Origin: Escherichia phage nithesis
Sequence record: PV252060.1
Direction: 5' to 3' (one strand)
DNA: 64,000 bases
Shown here piece by piece: positions 8,984-55,938 of the stretch (position 1 is its first letter; each line of letters begins with the position of its first letter). A program made the position numbers and the translations under genes. The notes beneath the pieces are model-generated. The model saw nothing but the letters and a program-made list of their open reading frames with translations. It ran no database searches and was not told the DNA's origin.

Positions 8984-11638
8984 ATGGGTTTATTCAGTGG
9001 GAAGACCAAAGTATACGTAGCATCCTCTGTCTATAACATGGCAGGGGATATACACAAACGTCCCAACTATATGAAGACTGTAGTCATCGGTAACATTGTT
9101 TCCAATACAGGATTCACTATGGCAGACACTATCTCTGATAGTTATCTGAATGGACCGGGTATTCGTATGCGACTGTTCTCTAGCTGGAGTAAGAACCACT
9201 ATGATTCAGAAGTTGGTATGGCTGGCTCTTCATTAGGTGTACTGGCTAAGATTGACCCTACTGTTATAGAGGGTCAAATTACACCACCTGCTGGAGAGTC
9301 CGTCTATGTTCAGGCAGCAGAGATTGGTTTTGCTGACTTTGAACAATGGTGTGACCAGTATCTTTATGAGAATGCCCCAAGTCGAATCATGGAACGATTC
9401 GATATAGACATTGATGAAGATACTAATGAAATTACTATGACCTCCCTGGATGGAGGTTCTACTATTAAATTCACACCTACTAACTTTGAACCAGGTGCTT
9501 TGTATCTCTATGCTGATTACTCGTTTTACAAGTCCCCCTCTATCAATCCACCTGTAGTAGGGCCAACTACTGTCTATGATGATGAGGATGACTTACCCTC
9601 TACTTTGCTATGGACTACTGTATCAAGTGATACAACAGCCAATACAACTAACCTTACTAAGATTATACATACTCATTCTGTTTACTCTGATGGTAGACCG
9701 GATGAAGATAGTACCGTCACGGAACCAAGTGTAGATAACTGGAACTCTTACGTTAAGGTCTACCGTAGAGGGTTTACTGAGAAACCTGATGGTGTGACTG
9801 TGGTTGTATCTGACAGGGTAATGACTCATAAAAAGTTTGGTGAGGTTCAATCCAGTACCACTGTAACTACCAATGTAGTTGATATAGGTGGAGGAGTTAC
9901 TCGTACTGACACAATCACTACAACCACAGAGACACTGGTTCGTAAGTATTCCTCCCAGACTACTCGTACAGATACAGAGATGACTGCTGTTGGTACACCT
10001 AAGATGCTTATCTATAAGCAGAACTCTGGTAACGTTGCACTGGATTCACTGTTTGAGACTGAGGCTACTGACAACCGATTCTACCCATTCATCCCAATCA
10101 GGAATGATAAACGATGGGTAGAGAATGACCCAATATACCCTCACTGTAAGAAAGCTCTTTATAAAGCTACAGGTGGTAAGCTCAATAATGTAGTAACTGA
10201 GCTTAAGAAGAATAAGGATATAGGAGATATCCAATACATTTATGGCACATTCGGTGTATCTCTTAATACCCCAGAAGATACTGCTAAAGAATACATCTAC
10301 CGTTTCTTTCAGATGGCTACTGAAGCATTCCCACCTGACCCAACCTACCCTACATTGGAAGCAGTGATTGCAGGTTATCAGGCAGCTAATGATGCAGTTG
10401 ATGCATACGTAAAATGGTGGAACGAGGGGGTAAATCAGGTAGTTGGAACACCCCCACCACTGCCAGAATACCCTGTCATACCTAAGCGAGAGTTTAGGGT
10501 ACATAGTAATAAGCAGTACAAGTATGACATGACTATTGGCTGGAATTACGTGTCTGAAACTACTCACTCAGGGCAAGCATGGTCTGGTGCTAAGCAGGGG
10601 CAACTTCGATCCAGGTATGCAGGAGATATAACCCTTACCCGTAAGAACATACGTACTGCTAGTAACTCTGGCTCAACTAAGAAGCTGGAGGTTACTACTA
10701 CATTTTACTCTATGCAGGAATACGAACTGCTTTGGCAGGATGGTAATAATACCTACCGTAAACTTAGGGTACTGGGCCTAAACCACAATAACAGGGTATA
10801 TAAAAATAAGTCAGTGCATATTGATGTTGCCGGGGCAATGGGTGATGCAGAGGAGAGTGGATTTATTATTCCACTGCATACTAACATCTATCGTTCAATG
10901 TCACTGGTTCGAAGTACTCAGTTATCCACTGCCTGTTCCTACTTAGTGATGAACTCATATAAGAAGGTTAAGCAGAAGTGGTATCAAACATCTGCTTTTA
11001 AAATTGTGGTTGTTGTAGTTGCTGTCGTTGTATCCGTATTCACTATGGGTGCTGGTGGTGCAGGTATACTTGGAGCATATGGTGCAGTTGGTGCATCACT
11101 TGGCTTTGTTGGATTAGCTGCCGTGATAGTTGGTGCTGTAGCAAACGCTATTGCTGGAATGATTCTGGTATCCATTATTACAAAAGTATCCACTGCACTG
11201 TTCGGTGATAAACTGGGCTTTATTATTGCAGCTATTGCTTCGATGGTAGCTATGAATGTTGGTACTGCATTGTCTACTGGTACATCTCTGTCTACCTTAG
11301 CCAGTGAGATGATGAATGCCCAAAACATCATGCAGCTTACCAGTTCAGTTGGTAATGGTATTAGCCAGTATATTAATGCATCTACGGCTGCTACTATTCA
11401 GAAAGCAGAGAAAGTAATGCAGCAGTACAATACTGATATGATGGCAATCAATAAGCAGTATGAAGAGATGTTTGGTACTGCTGGACAGGGCGTAATTGAC
11501 CCTATGCAATTCGTGTCAATGGAGTCACTGGATTCTTTCTTATCCCGTACACTTATGACTGGTTCGGATATAGCTGACATGTCTTTAAACATGGTTGGCA
11601 GCTTCTCTGACATGACCCTTAATACTGATCTTGTTTAA
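8984..11638 (+). CDS. large virion protein with C-terminal Gly/Ala-rich transmembrane segments; internal/ejection protein candidate
   Basis: 884 aa; C-terminal VVVVAVVVSVFTMGAGGAGILGAYGAVGASLGFVGLAAVIVGAVANAIAGMILVSIIT; upstream of vRNAP. Confidence 0.45.
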   Translation: MGLFSGKTKVYVASSVYNMAGDIHKRPNYMKTVVIGNIVSNTGFTMADTISDSYLNGPGIRMRLFSSWSKNHYDSEVGMAGSSLGVLAKIDPTVIEGQITPPAGESVYVQAAEIGFADFEQWCDQYLYENAPSRIMERFDIDIDEDTNEITMTSLDGGSTIKFTPTNFEPGALYLYADYSFYKSPSINPPVVGPTTVYDDEDDLPSTLLWTTVSSDTTANTTNLTKIIHTHSVYSDGRPDEDSTVTEPSVDNWNSYVKVYRRGFTEKPDGVTVVVSDRVMTHKKFGEVQSSTTVTTNVVDIGGGVTRTDTITTTTETLVRKYSSQTTRTDTEMTAVGTPKMLIYKQNSGNVALDSLFETEATDNRFYPFIPIRNDKRWVENDPIYPHCKKALYKATGGKLNNVVTELKKNKDIGDIQYIYGTFGVSLNTPEDTAKEYIYRFFQMATEAFPPDPTYPTLEAVIAGYQAANDAVDAYVKWWNEGVNQVVGTPPPLPEYPVIPKREFRVHSNKQYKYDMTIGWNYVSETTHSGQAWSGAKQGQLRSRYAGDITLTRKNIRTASNSGSTKKLEVTTTFYSMQEYELLWQDGNNTYRKLRVLGLNHNNRVYKNKSVHIDVAGAMGDAEESGFIIPLHTNIYRSMSLVRSTQLSTACSYLVMNSYKKVKQKWYQTSAFKIVVVVVAVVVSVFTMGAGGAGILGAYGAVGASLGFVGLAAVIVGAVANAIAGMILVSIITKVSTALFGDKLGFIIAAIASMVAMNVGTALSTGTSLSTLASEMMNAQNIMQLTSSVGNGISQYINASTAATIQKAEKVMQQYNTDMMAINKQYEEMFGTAGQGVIDPMQFVSMESLDSFLSRTLMTGSDIADMSLNMVGSFSDMTLNTDLV

Positions 11639-45578: not shown

Positions 45579-45605
45579 AAAAAAAGACCTCCCGGAGGAG
45601 GTCTT
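45579..45605 (-). terminator. rho-independent terminator
   Basis: Minus sense agacctcc-tccg-ggaggtct followed by ttttttt. Confidence 0.5.
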
Positions 45606-49969: not shown

Positions 49970-51022
49970 TTATCCGTGAATGTAGCGAGAGATATTAGCA
50001 GCAGCCTTACGCCATTCAGGAGTAGCCTGAAGATCTGGTAATGCATTGCCTACTGTACGGAAGTACAGAATCTTATGGGTGAACGTTCTAAAACGTTCAA
50101 TGTACTGAAGAACATCAACAAAGTTCTCTTCAGTAGTCTTGTTAGCCAAATGGTTAACAGTAGCCCAACACAGGTTGTTATCATCAGGTAGTGCACAGCC
50201 CAGAGGGTCTTTGACTACCTTCTCAATCGTAATTATACGATTGTATACCTGAGTAAACTGAACAAATTCTGTAGCCTTACCAGCAGTAACGTGTCCTGCA
50301 TAGTAGATAGAATCTTCATCAGGAAGAGCACCTTCTGGTAAGTTCTTGAGGTCTTTGTTAACAAAGTCCCAGGTACGAGGGCAACAGAACGTTTTGTTCT
50401 TATGTGCTGGGTCGAAGTCATGCAGATAACCAGGGTTAGCATGTAAGAATGCAACCAGACGTTCATCCCATTGCTGAGGAATCATTACGTCTTCAACAAA
50501 GATGTCGAAGTTAAGTTCCATTTCAAAGTGAACCACACGAGACTGCATTGCAGTACCTAATGGGTTAACAATGGCACGGTCAGTAGCTTTATTACCTGCA
50601 CAGACAATCATCACATTAGGATGAAGTTTTTTCTGACCAGTCATACGGTCTAGAATCAGTTTATATGCAGCAGCTACTACTTCTTTCTTAGCTGAGTTGA
50701 ACTCATCAAGGAATAAGAGCCAGCCATTATACCCTTCTGGTAATTCATCTCCCTCAATTGGGAATAAGTCAGCGAATGGAATAAACTCTGCACGGTCACC
50801 ATTACGGAATGGTAAACCAGACAGGTCTTCCGGGGCAGAAGTAGACAGACGATGGTCTATCAGTTTCATACCAAATTCTTCTGCAATAGAACGAATGATT
50901 GCAGATTTACCCATACCAGGTGATGAAGTCAGGAACGGTACGTTACCTGCTTTCAAAGCACGGATAATAAAGTTACGAGCTTGACGTGAATTACATACGG
51001 TCAAGGAGTCGATGCTTGTCAT
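49970..51022 (-). CDS. MoxR-like AAA+ ATPase
   Basis: Walker A SPGMGKSA; 350 aa; immediately upstream of vWA/HExxH gene. Confidence 0.55.
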   Translation of the reverse strand: MTSIDSLTVCNSRQARNFIIRALKAGNVPFLTSSPGMGKSAIIRSIAEEFGMKLIDHRLSTSAPEDLSGLPFRNGDRAEFIPFADLFPIEGDELPEGYNGWLLFLDEFNSAKKEVVAAAYKLILDRMTGQKKLHPNVMIVCAGNKATDRAIVNPLGTAMQSRVVHFEMELNFDIFVEDVMIPQQWDERLVAFLHANPGYLHDFDPAHKNKTFCCPRTWDFVNKDLKNLPEGALPDEDSIYYAGHVTAGKATEFVQFTQVYNRIITIEKVVKDPLGCALPDDNNLCWATVNHLANKTTEENFVDVLQYIERFRTFTHKILYFRTVGNALPDLQATPEWRKAAANISRYIHG

Positions 51023-51572: not shown

Positions 51573-51829
51573 TCTTCTTCCTCTTCTTCGGGTAATACGG
51601 ATAGATCAACCCCTAAATGTTTTAGGCGTTTCTCTAAGTCATCTATCTTCTTTTGATAAAATGCTACTAATTTAGGGTATATGCTTGCACGAGCTTGTAT
51701 TCCTAAATCCGTATCACAGAAGGTTACTTTAATCATGTGAGGAGCTTTCTTCAGACTAGCCAATTGCTGCCGGTTGTCGTTGTACTCTTCATACAATTTT
51801 TCAACTAAACGTAGGTTGTGAATATTCAT
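51569..51829 (-). CDS. hypothetical small protein
   Basis: 86-aa ORF, coupled overlap with neighbours. Confidence 0.3.
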   Translation of the reverse strand: MNIHNLRLVEKLYEEYNDNRQQLASLKKAPHMIKVTFCDTDLGIQARASIYPKLVAFYQKKIDDLEKRLKHLGVDLSVLPEEEEEE

Positions 51830-52047
51830 TTCTTCTCCGGTATGAACTGCATTATACAGTTTTGATTACGAGGGATATTCAATTCACATTCATACTTGAG
51901 GGTTTGTGTTACAGAGTTTGGGGTAGAACCAAAGTAGGTATTAGAAATAGCTACAAATCCTGCACCTATTAGACCACCTAGCAAGAATGAGAAAAATGCA
52001 ATCTCTTTATACATTTCCTGGCTCCAGATGTAGAAAACCCCAGTCAA
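51826..52047 (-). CDS. small membrane protein
   Basis: Hydrophobic segment FFSFLLGGLIGAGFVAI. Confidence 0.3.
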   Translation of the reverse strand: MTGVFYIWSQEMYKEIAFFSFLLGGLIGAGFVAISNTYFGSTPNSVTQTLKYECELNIPRNQNCIMQFIPEKK

Positions 52048-52075
52048 TGCTGGGGTTTATCTATCAGTTTATGCT

Positions 52076-52336
52076 TTATAGGCCATGTGGTCGGCATAGA
52101 CTACCCGAACCAAACGAACGGTGTCCAAGTCGGCCCAGGATTAGATTGCTTACTTCAGCAGCAGCACGGCTGAATGCTTTAAAGTCAAAGACTACGACAC
52201 CAAAGAGTGGGGCTGCAATAGCAGCTACCATGATTGGCGTCAGGTCAACCAGTGACATACCCAAGATTAAGTGAGCAGCGTAGGCAATAATACCCATTCC
52301 AAAACCACAACCATATCCAATAGCAATTTTACGCAT
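52076..52336 (-). CDS. small membrane protein
   Basis: Two hydrophobic segments; 86 aa. Confidence 0.3.
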   Translation of the reverse strand: MRKIAIGYGCGFGMGIIAYAAHLILGMSLVDLTPIMVAAIAAPLFGVVVFDFKAFSRAAAEVSNLILGRLGHRSFGSGSLCRPHGL

Positions 52337-52393
52337 AGTTACCTTCTTAGTTAGTAAGTTAATTAGTATTCATATAACAGACAAACAATAGTC

Positions 52394-52443
52394 AAAAAAA
52401 AAAAAAAAAAAAAAAAAAAAGACCTCCCTTCAATATGGAGGTC
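52394..52443 (-). terminator. hairpin followed by 27-nt homopolymeric T tract (A27 on plus strand)
   Basis: Stem gacctcc/ggaggtc with 9-nt loop at 52421-52443, then 27 consecutive A at 52394-52420. Confidence 0.5.
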
Positions 52444-52493
52444 AAACTTGAGGGTTTCATTTCAGGGTTTATAACCCCAAACAAAGAATACCC

Positions 52494-53327
52494 TTATTCT
52501 GCAACAGTAACAGGGATGGTTACATCGACAGTACCGTTGGTAACTACTACAGAAGTAGCATCACCAGCAGCTACTGGTTTAACTGTCAGGACATTGCCAG
52601 AAATGGTAGCTGTAGCACGTCCAGATTCTGGAGCAGTCTTGATAGACAAAGTACCGGAAGAGGAACCAACAGGCATAGCAACAATTGTTACAGTCTTGCC
52701 AGCAACAGTATCGGCAGCAACAGACAGAGCCAGTGAATCAGGAGTAGCTACCAGAGAGCTTGCTTCGTAGTAGCCTACAGCCAGCAGTGACTCATCTTCT
52801 ACAGTGGTTACATTAGCATCTGTAACAATCACTTTATAAGTACCAGCAGAAGCAGCTGTTACGTCATTAAGGGTCAATGTTGCAGTAGCAGCAGATGGGT
52901 TAGTACTGGAACTAATATCAGCGAATGCTGCACCAGCAGTATTTGCTTTGAATTGCCATTTATAAGTAAATGGTGCTTTACCACCTGCTACATCAACATG
53001 CCAGTTAATATCTTCACCTTCAATAGTGGAGACTACACGAGGCAGTTTGGTAGCAATGGTCAGTCGTGGAGTAGCTTTCATATCAATAGAGATAGACTGC
53101 ATATCCACGATGTTGTTAGGCCAGAAGCCTTCTTCAGCAGGGTTTTTAGCAGAGCGTTTATATAGCAGATCACGAACACTATGAAAGATAACTAAGCTAT
53201 CTGGGTAAGTGGCATCTGGGTGTACAAAAGTACCTACTTCTACGGAACCACCTGGGATAGAACCACTGGCATCCAGTACAGTTGCAACATTAGTGGTTTT
53301 GTTAAAACCTACTTTCAAAGTTGGCAT
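52494..53327 (-). CDS. Ig-like domain protein, capsid decoration candidate (N4 gp17-like by position)
   Basis: Thr/Val/Ser-rich beta-type repeats; directly downstream of RNAP II genes; ATG at 53327 with GAGGAAA ribosome-binding site. Confidence 0.45.
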   Translation of the reverse strand: MPTLKVGFNKTTNVATVLDASGSIPGGSVEVGTFVHPDATYPDSLVIFHSVRDLLYKRSAKNPAEEGFWPNNIVDMQSISIDMKATPRLTIATKLPRVVSTIEGEDINWHVDVAGGKAPFTYKWQFKANTAGAAFADISSSTNPSAATATLTLNDVTAASAGTYKVIVTDANVTTVEDESLLAVGYYEASSLVATPDSLALSVAADTVAGKTVTIVAMPVGSSSGTLSIKTAPESGRATATISGNVLTVKPVAAGDATSVVVTNGTVDVTIPVTVAE

Positions 53328-53401
53328 ATCAATTTCCTCATAAGTAAATAGCAGGATTAGTATACATGACATGTAAAAAAATAAACCCTCCGTTAAGAGG
53401 G

Positions 53402-53617
53402 TTAGTTGTTTACACAGTAGATAGCAAAAGCTATCCATCCTGCCATTACAAAGCAGCCAAGTGAGTATGCTCCATAGTAGCAGTAAGCAAACTTAGACTT
53501 GTGGGCATGAACTATTGTAGACAGAACCAGTACAGATAAAACTATCAGTATTAGCTGAAAGATTACTTCAAAAGGGATTAGCATAGTTTTTACCTCCAAG
53601 CAAAAAATAGGCCTCAC
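53402..53617 (-). CDS. small membrane protein
   Basis: Two hydrophobic helices; 71 aa. Confidence 0.3.
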   Translation of the reverse strand: MRPIFCLEVKTMLIPFEVIFQLILIVLSVLVLSTIVHAHKSKFAYCYYGAYSLGCFVMAGWIAFAIYCVNN

Positions 53618-53634
53618 TCCCGAAGGAATGAGGC
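53601..53634 (-). terminator. rho-independent terminator
   Basis: 9-bp stem with cgaa-type loop followed by tattttttg in minus sense. Confidence 0.5.
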
Positions 53635-53641
53635 TAGTTTA

Positions 53642-54859
53642 TTAACTTAATGCATAGTCAGTTTCAAGAATGTCCTGCCAGAGGCTGTCATCCAGCTTAC
53701 CAGCAGAGAACTCTTGTCCTAGTACCTGTGACAGAATGAAGCCTAGCAGGTCACTCTTAGCAATGTCAGACAGAATCTGATTGTACTGACGACGCAAGTC
53801 GTTGCCATAGTTAGGATGACAACGGAAGCAGTCATGTACAGTCATTACAGGGAAAGGTTTCTTAGGCATAGTATTGAGCATAGCTAAGATTACATCTGTA
53901 TCTACCAATGCAATGGTTTCTGAGTCCAGATAATCAAGGATACGCGTAGACAGGAAGCCTGATTTCTCATAACTAGACCACAGTGTATTAACCATTCCAT
54001 AGTTATCATCAGAACCCACCATATAATCGCCAGTTCCTTCACAGAGGGATTTAATATAGTTCACCTGGTTCATGTCGAAGTTACAACGACGCAGCATCTC
54101 ACGTACCACCATCCCATCAATAGAGTGAGTGATGTTAGCAGAGAGCATACGAGTCTTCTCTTCAGTACCCTGAACCATACGAGTGATGTCGAATGGTTTA
54201 CCTAAGAAGTTAACGGTCTGTACTTCTGGAACCATGACCTTAATGACAGCATGGAAGTTGTCAGGCAGTATCCATACATAACGGTTGGCATCCGGGTTAC
54301 CACATTGTAATAAGAACTTGTTAAGTGCCCAAGGACCACTAGCAACAGTTTCCATTACATTCTCAAAAGTCTTGAGACGAATACCTTCACCGAATACTTC
54401 TTTAGGCTTAGCTTCTGAGCCGTAGAATGCAGTCATAACTGCCTGCTTAGTGTCACTACGTTTAATACGAGATGCTTCACCAAGGATGTCCAGCATCTTG
54501 TGATAGATAACTGTATAAGCATCACGACGTAATGGCTTACCATTCTCTCCCATGTAGTTAACTACGTTACACAGTTCAGCAGCAGAGCGGTCACCAGTTA
54601 GGCAGGCCAGTAACTGCAAGCCGGATGATGTAGCATCCAGAGCTACGGCATAACCGATAGGCTTACCTGCTTTCATATCTTTCCATGCGTTTACACCAGC
54701 AAAGAACAGAGCAGAATCTTCAGCTTCATCTACCAGATTAAGCAGGTTAGCTTCGTTTTCATCGAACCAGGCAATACGCTCATCCCATGTCTTCTTATCT
54801 AAGCCATAGTTATTAGCGATATCTACTTTCAGGTATTCACGAGCGGTTAACAGTTGCAT
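53642..54859 (-). CDS. phage RNA polymerase II, catalytic C-terminal-type subunit (T7-like; N4 gp16-like)
   Basis: DATSSGLQLLA resembles T7 RNAP DGSCSGIQHFSA; MTVHDCF resembles T7 motif C HDSF; 405 aa. Confidence 0.7.
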   Translation of the reverse strand: MQLLTAREYLKVDIANNYGLDKKTWDERIAWFDENEANLLNLVDEAEDSALFFAGVNAWKDMKAGKPIGYAVALDATSSGLQLLACLTGDRSAAELCNVVNYMGENGKPLRRDAYTVIYHKMLDILGEASRIKRSDTKQAVMTAFYGSEAKPKEVFGEGIRLKTFENVMETVASGPWALNKFLLQCGNPDANRYVWILPDNFHAVIKVMVPEVQTVNFLGKPFDITRMVQGTEEKTRMLSANITHSIDGMVVREMLRRCNFDMNQVNYIKSLCEGTGDYMVGSDDNYGMVNTLWSSYEKSGFLSTRILDYLDSETIALVDTDVILAMLNTMPKKPFPVMTVHDCFRCHPNYGNDLRRQYNQILSDIAKSDLLGFILSQVLGQEFSAGKLDDSLWQDILETDYALS

Positions 54860-55885: not shown

Positions 55886-55938
55886 CGCTTATTCTCCTAA
55901 ATGTGATTAATAACCAAAAGCTGCGGAGCAGCTATTAC

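Follow-up and report, generated by a model that had tools for sequence, protein, structure and literature searches.

A long T-tract at the conserved, probable intrinsic terminator of the gp17-like decoration gene in a Gamaleyavirus genome

Genes and sequence elements at the locus

The window analysed here is a stretch of 64,000 nucleotides of phage DNA. Judged by its sequence, it is a Gamaleyavirus, an N4-like podovirus of the G7C/Bp4/IME11 type (Schitoviridae, Enquatrovirinae). The best phage matches are to Gamaleyavirus genomes at 87-93% identity, and the phage collection contains no closer record. Alignments to Bp4 and PD38 stop at ~61658, which is the physical end of those two records, so the window record appears to be circularly permuted and to run across the genome terminus. 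Just inside this terminus lies a run of seven G (61620-61626, plus strand); the phage SP5M has the corresponding C7 run at positions 25-31 of its own record.

All genes around the tract are encoded on the minus strand. The first in transcript order is the gene for the large subunit of RNAPII (53642-54859; PHROG 2051, 5e-175; Pfam RNA_pol), and it is followed by a 60-aa hydrophobic ORF on the same strand and then by a gp17-like, Ig-domain head-decoration gene (52494-53327). For the 277-aa product of the latter, the PHROG match is 2973 ('Hoc-like head decoration', 1.7e-98) and the Pfam match a weak one to Ig_3 (2e-6, under the gathering score); its ortholog in Bp4 and G7C is annotated as 'similar to N4 32 kDa virion protein gp17'. 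The start codon is in fact the ATG at 53327, with GAGGAAATTGAT before it, and this yields the same 834-nt coding sequence as in the relatives; the mechanically called ORF of 314 aa for the Ig-like gene is over-extended. Further downstream are an 86-aa hydrophobic ORF with ~2 transmembrane segments (52076-52336, minus strand; PHROG 26763) and a 62-aa ORF with a single one (51826-52014, minus strand), the latter resembling the membrane protein G7C gp17.1 / N4 gp19. Both contain hydrophobic 19-residue windows (KD 2.3). The sequence-only reading had placed the tract between an Ig-like gene and downstream membrane-protein genes, and these matches agree with it. A plus-strand ORF that starts within the hairpin described below (52435-52770) is a mechanical antisense ORF within the decoration gene.

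Between the decoration gene and the 86-aa ORF, positions 52394-52420 of the plus strand form an uninterrupted run of 27 A (T27, or U27, in the minus sense). As first noticed from the letters, this run directly abuts a 7-bp hairpin, located at 52421-52443 on the minus strand. On the plus strand it consists of GACCTCC (52421-52427), a 9-nt loop CTTCAATAT (52428-52436) and GGAGGTC (52437-52443). In transcript sense it reads GACCUCC-AUAUUGAAG-GGAGGUC, with the U27 following without any spacer; written as sense-strand DNA, the letters are GACCTCC(A) TATTGAA (G)GGAGGTC, with a stem of 7 bp and a loop of 9 nt. Five of the seven pairs are G-C. The predicted energy is -10.7 kcal/mol, and an equally good fold was obtained in only 3 of 200 shuffles. 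The gp17-like gene, also on the minus strand, ends with a TAA that lies about 50-51 nt before the hairpin. A bidirectional terminator was considered and rejected, as the plus strand has no T-run after the hairpin.

A second conserved stem-loop is predicted at 52452-52493 (minus strand), between the stop codon of the decoration gene and the terminator. Its inner stem is UUUGGGGUU-AUA-AACCCUGAA (52473-52481 / 52461-52469) and its outer stem GGGU/ACCC. No compensatory changes were seen in it among the 24 sequences, and the structure is a prediction only. Phage N4 carries the module GGGGTTAACGACCC in the matching position. The second stem-loop and the terminator travel together as one module, even where a sie gene is inserted upstream. 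Such a P22-sie-like superinfection-exclusion gene precedes the module in N4, Moo19, IME11, ShWW44, PE007 and PGN829.1 and is absent from the window; in St11Ph5 the annotation under the match points to the same insertion.

On the other side of the tract, a leader of 57 nt (52337-52393, minus strand) runs as GACUAUUG...AAGAAGGUAACU and carries a Shine-Dalgarno sequence (AAGAAGG), followed by the AUG of the 86-aa ORF. The initial 'GACT' of this leader is the left boundary of an inserted cassette. The cassette consists of the 86-aa ORF and its own terminator (52032-52055, minus strand; CCCCAG-CATTGA-CTGGGG, then UUUUCU), and its insertion point, in the window and ~10 relatives, is 4 nt past the T-run. 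Its carriers are the window, Uz-1, Bp4, PD38, IME11, E20, KKP3715, CU10EC, K57alpha1.2 and one Logan contig; in relatives that lack it, the 62-aa ORF directly follows the terminator. By sequence comparison, this intergenic region (52032-52393 in the window; L007, L025, L026, L043, L046 and L176 among the loci compared) is a hot spot of cassette exchange.

Two further terminators lie upstream on the minus strand and serve as controls below. One follows the RNAPII large subunit gene (53602-53634) and has a 10-bp stem, CTA and T6; the other (53375-53403) consists of AACCCTC-TTAAC-GGAGGGTT followed by TA and T7. Still further upstream are three hairpins, each having a loop of 3 nt and lying upstream of minus-strand genes, in which the template strand bears the heptamer GCGGAGC (55919-55933, 60743-60761 and ~61556-61574; heptamer at 55923, 60749 and 61562 in plus-strand coordinates). 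On their sequence, these three match the N4 vRNAP early promoters P1-P3 as described (PMC4496689). One of them is directly upstream of the RNAPII small subunit gene. Their positions place the last of them ~3.5 kb upstream of the T27 element, and the two control terminators come in between.

The arms GACCTCC/GGAGGTC occur as an inverted repeat at one other place in the window (0 expected by chance). This is a second terminator with an identical stem, a 4-nt loop and T7 (45579-45603, minus strand), of which SP5M has a counterpart, also with T7. Elsewhere, endonuclease genes interrupt genes in two relatives. In the Logan assembly ERR775480 (L048, 3308-4643) the ortholog of window positions 49970-51022 is split by an HNH/NUMOD4 gene, leaving 231 aa of a 350-aa AAA-ATPase-like protein, and in SP5M an HNH endonuclease splits the DNA polymerase gene.

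The hairpin and T-run in related phages

The homologous site was gathered from 40 loci in GenBank phages, IMG/VR, metagenome contigs and Logan assemblies, and a hairpin followed by a T-run is present at all 40. In these relatives the element has the pattern GACCTCCC, a 7-nt loop, GGGAGGTC, the T-run and then G, and the consensus stem (GACCTCCC/GGGAGGTC) comprises 8-9 bp. It is already annotated in some records, as a 'terminator' in PhAPEC5, PhAPEC7 ('determined with ARNold') and SP5M and as a 'stem_loop' in G7C. The Moovirus Moo19 has an identical stem with T7. N4 itself has an analogous module between gp18 (sie) and gp19 (membrane protein), made up of a small stem-loop, GCCCTCC-TAT-GGAGGGC and T6 in that order.

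Across the 24 unique sequences, each stem pair is kept in 96-100% while the loop varies freely. Changes of A to G opposite U, compatible with G-U pairing, occur in the stems of E20, KKP3715 and CU10EC, and HK2, which is outside the alignment, shows a compensatory double change (C to T together with G to A). The only broken stem pair among the 24 is that of the window, where a C to A change at 52436 abolishes the pair closing the loop. The hairpin of the window is consequently ~5 kcal/mol weaker than the consensus of the relatives (-10.7 against -15.9 kcal/mol).

The length of the T-run is nearly constant. The comparison with related genomes proposed at the outset gave T7 at 35 of the 40 loci, T8 at two (Mimir124 and a Logan contig from ERR775480) and T6 at two (Uz-1 and Bp4), and a long tract is seen only in the window and in SP5M (MT682708.1; L174 and L175). 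SP5M has T14 at positions 9467-9480 of its record with an intact stem, and this is the sole A/T run longer than 7 in its complete genome of 72,896 bp. The ancestral length of the tract is T7. The flanks of the run are collinear base for base with those of the relatives on both sides, and the element of the window is orthologous to the terminator of Gamaleyavirus and N4 phages, which follows gp17 or the sie gene gp18. Both share position, strand and the stem GACCTCC(C)/(G)GGAGGTC, as well as the flanks, namely the upstream stem-loop and the downstream 'GACT...'. The element of the window differs in having T27 rather than T7 (T6 in N4) and in the loss of the loop-closing C-G pair.

In the nearest Logan contigs, which share 98.2% identity with the window over a stretch of 4.2 kb and 97.0-97.7% over 5-7 kb, the run is T7 and the stem intact. 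Both derived features of the window, T27 and the C to A change, are therefore recent. Of the hits to a 19-mer anchor in metagenomes, only L010, L017 and L018 were homologous, most of the others being unrelated and due to chance. Exact look-ups of the 314-aa, 277-aa, 86-aa and 350-aa products gave zero matches, while look-ups that began from the RNAPII large subunit and from another 86-aa protein gave only contigs of 91-99% identity, all of which have T7 or T8 where they cover the site. The hairpin variant specific to the window is absent from IMG/VR and GTDB genomes and has no match in complete E. coli genomes, and the combination of at least 10 A with GACCTCCC does not occur in IMG/VR.

Length and origin of the T-tract

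The 27-nt run, identified as the U-tract of the terminator (52394-52420, minus strand) by a run-length scan and by the tract lengths in relatives, is the sole homopolymer of at least 8 in the whole 64 kb. Counts of A/T runs in the window fall from 59 of length 5 to 19 of length 6 and four of length 7, and the next is the run of 27. The expected number of runs of at least 27 is 2e-10 if positions are independent and identically distributed, and ~1e-12 by extrapolating the decay of the observed run lengths. As a feature of the sequence the A27 run is real and far beyond chance.

One possible origin is an artefact of sequencing or assembly, in which the true tract would be ~7 nt or indeterminate and the 27-mer would come from base-calling, polishing or assembly. 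T27 is unique among the 41 loci, no other run in the window exceeds 7, and the searches yielded no other assembly of this strain to confirm its length. In a sample from IMG/VR, moreover, A/T runs of at least 27 are rare and often at contig ends, where artefacts or poly(A) tails typically sit. The run in the window is internal, however, and both of its flanks are exactly collinear with the relatives. The assembly is otherwise clean of indels, with an intact 10.8-kb vRNAP ORF and neighbouring genes of the same lengths as in relatives, and SP5M provides an independent T14 at the same site as its sole long run. Common sequencing errors leave a long homopolymer too short or off by a few bases and are not known to lengthen one from 7 to 27. 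Because the flanks are collinear, the assembly is indel-clean and the T14 of SP5M is independent, an artefact seems unlikely, although the exact figure of 27 should be taken as approximate. An origin as a poly(A) tail or the remnant of a retro-insertion was likewise rejected, as the run is T in transcript sense and its flanks are collinear with the relatives.

The sequence-only reading had described the tract as prone to slippage, and this part of its proposal fits the lengths of 6, 7, 8, 14 and 27 observed at the site in relatives and window. A/T homopolymers are slipped on very readily by T7-type RNA polymerases, and by E. coli RNA polymerase from ~7 T (PMC6260861). At the DNA level, growth from T7 to T27 is most likely due to replication slippage after the run had passed a stability threshold. 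The same lineage also gained the C to A change and so lost its loop-closing pair. The tract is expected to be heterogeneous in length in the phage population.

The occurrence of T14 in SP5M and T27 in the window at one and the same terminator suggests, from the sequence comparison, a propensity specific to this site, the cause of which may perhaps be a perfect T7 adjoining a stable hairpin. The two neighbouring control terminators have T4-T7 in 15 relatives and were never found expanded. However, each genome has few T7 runs, and the chance that two expansions hit the same one is roughly p = 0.3, so the coincidence is not statistically compelling. Among the internal runs in the IMG/VR sample, 3 of 31 directly follow a GC-rich hairpin: L067 (T36), L062 (T44) and L124 (T43). 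One or two others are preceded, at a distance of a few bases, by a strong hairpin. The three resemble the window in having a hairpin and an over-long T-run within a viral contig; they are unrelated contigs, not orthologous to the window, and may include artefacts. These observations suggest that overgrowth of terminator T-tracts recurs sporadically.

Probable role in termination, and alternative roles of the tract

The element was proposed from the letters to be an intrinsic terminator in the minus sense, and its position, orientation, hairpin directly followed by U's, orthologous annotated hairpins with T7, and conserved stem with free loop all bear this out. What is found at the site is a GC-rich hairpin of conserved structure with an adjoining U-tract, downstream of a gene in the sense direction. 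With the canonical rho-independent terminator it shares the hairpin directly followed by U's, the single direction of action and the position downstream of a stop codon. It differs in its U-tract, which is three times the functional length, intrinsic terminators using 7-9 nt (PMC3993855), and in that the polymerase may be a T7-like phage enzyme rather than that of the host.

We infer that termination takes place at the U-tract. The terminator would close the gp17-like gene in the left, minus-strand block of early/middle genes. RNA polymerase (the T7-like RNA polymerases of the phage and/or the host enzyme) would pause on the weak rU:dA hybrid while the hairpin forms, and the transcript would be released inside the first ~7-9 U. 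The remaining ~18-20 T would be surplus to the mechanism, and as termination needs only the first ~7-9 U, T27 would have little regulatory meaning. Polymerases that read through may slip on the run, which would give the cassette of the 86-aa membrane protein leaders of variable U-length; since the tract is intergenic, such slippage would cause no frameshift. It is a matter of speculation that the perfect U-run partly offsets the weakened hairpin. The T14 of SP5M accompanies an intact stem, and no link between a weak hairpin and a long U-run is therefore established.

Taken as a whole, the element is quite probably the conserved intrinsic terminator of the gp17-like gene, with a T-tract that has grown from 7 to 27 in one lineage by slippage and is not a programmed switch.

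A different role would be that of a contingency tract or rheostat under selection, in which slippage tunes read-through from the decoration gene into the membrane-protein cassette. Homopolymeric loci of this kind include sabA of Helicobacter, the poly-A of vlp in Mycoplasma and the poly-C of fim in Bordetella. Contingency tracts sit inside an ORF, within a promoter or beside one, and across strains they are kept long and variable. The window resembles them in having a long, slippage-prone mononucleotide run beside a gene for a surface or membrane protein, but differs in that the tract follows a terminator and is short (7) in nearly all relatives. The spread of lengths at this one site is in keeping with such a role, as is the tendency of polymerases to slip on such runs (PMC6260861), and the tract is directly upstream of a horizontally mobile cassette encoding a small membrane protein. 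Yet the run is exactly T7 in 35 of 40 relatives, the nearest included, so that no long or variable tract is conserved among close relatives, and those with the same cassette keep T6-T7 (Uz-1, Bp4, PD38, IME11, E20 and Logan SRR25701170). The tract is outside any ORF, a scan at threshold found no sigma-70-like -35/-10 pair across it or in the leader, and the stretch of the signal on which termination depends does not include U's beyond ~9 (PMC3993855). The length-variable regulatory switch put forward in the sequence-only reading thus finds no support here, given T7 even in relatives 97-98% identical and a site that is neither an ORF nor a promoter spacer, and we consider a selected rheostat highly improbable.

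The tract could also act in initiation, as a new or strengthened, easily melted dA:dT entry site for the ssDNA-dependent middle polymerase (N4-type RNAPII with its ssDNA-binding cofactor) or as an UP-element-like enhancer of promoter activity for the cassette. The minimal promoter of N4 RNAPII extends from -7 to +2, has a very high AT content and depends on a melted template (PMC4496689), and the enzyme prefers to start at T (PMC9163698). Just before the next gene, the T-run with its G is strictly conserved, and no other promoter is evident there. The tract region is of course AT-rich, but trivially so, and the conserved state is a T7 attached to a hairpin, for which the role as a terminator already accounts. 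Middle promoters of LUZ7, moreover, are hairpins with loops of 3-4 nt rather than T-runs (PMC9163698). This role is very improbable. Two other kinds of promoter were rejected. A sigma-70 promoter or UP-element lacks a promoter-like pair at or after the tract at the threshold of the scan. In N4 vRNAP early promoters a 5-7 bp stem carries a loop of 3 nt, and the template strand has a GC-rich heptamer with its centre at -11 (PMC4496689); the hairpin next to the tract has a loop of 9 nt (7 in relatives) and no GCGGAGC heptamer.

A slippage hot spot that is exploited as a reversible, heritable rheostat (7 to 14 to 27), and that may also serve as an RNAPII entry site, has a very slim probability. 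If it were true, expansion of the T-tract would alter read-through by T7-like RNA polymerases into the exchanged small-membrane-protein cassette, and the membrane proteins of the cassette would possibly have functions in host interaction or exclusion.

Under the preferred reading, a terminator whose tract has overgrown by slippage, T27 is a new allele of a known and already annotated element, and its annotation as a regulatory switch should be avoided. Length heterogeneity, trouble in read mapping and assembly, and noise in strain typing are likely to arise from this site in Gamaleyavirus genomes. No description of terminators for N4-type RNA polymerases was found in the literature retrieved. 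If the tract is real, T7, T8, T14 and T27, the last with a weakened stem, form a natural allelic series that could be used to test the trade-off between U-tract length and hairpin strength for these polymerases.
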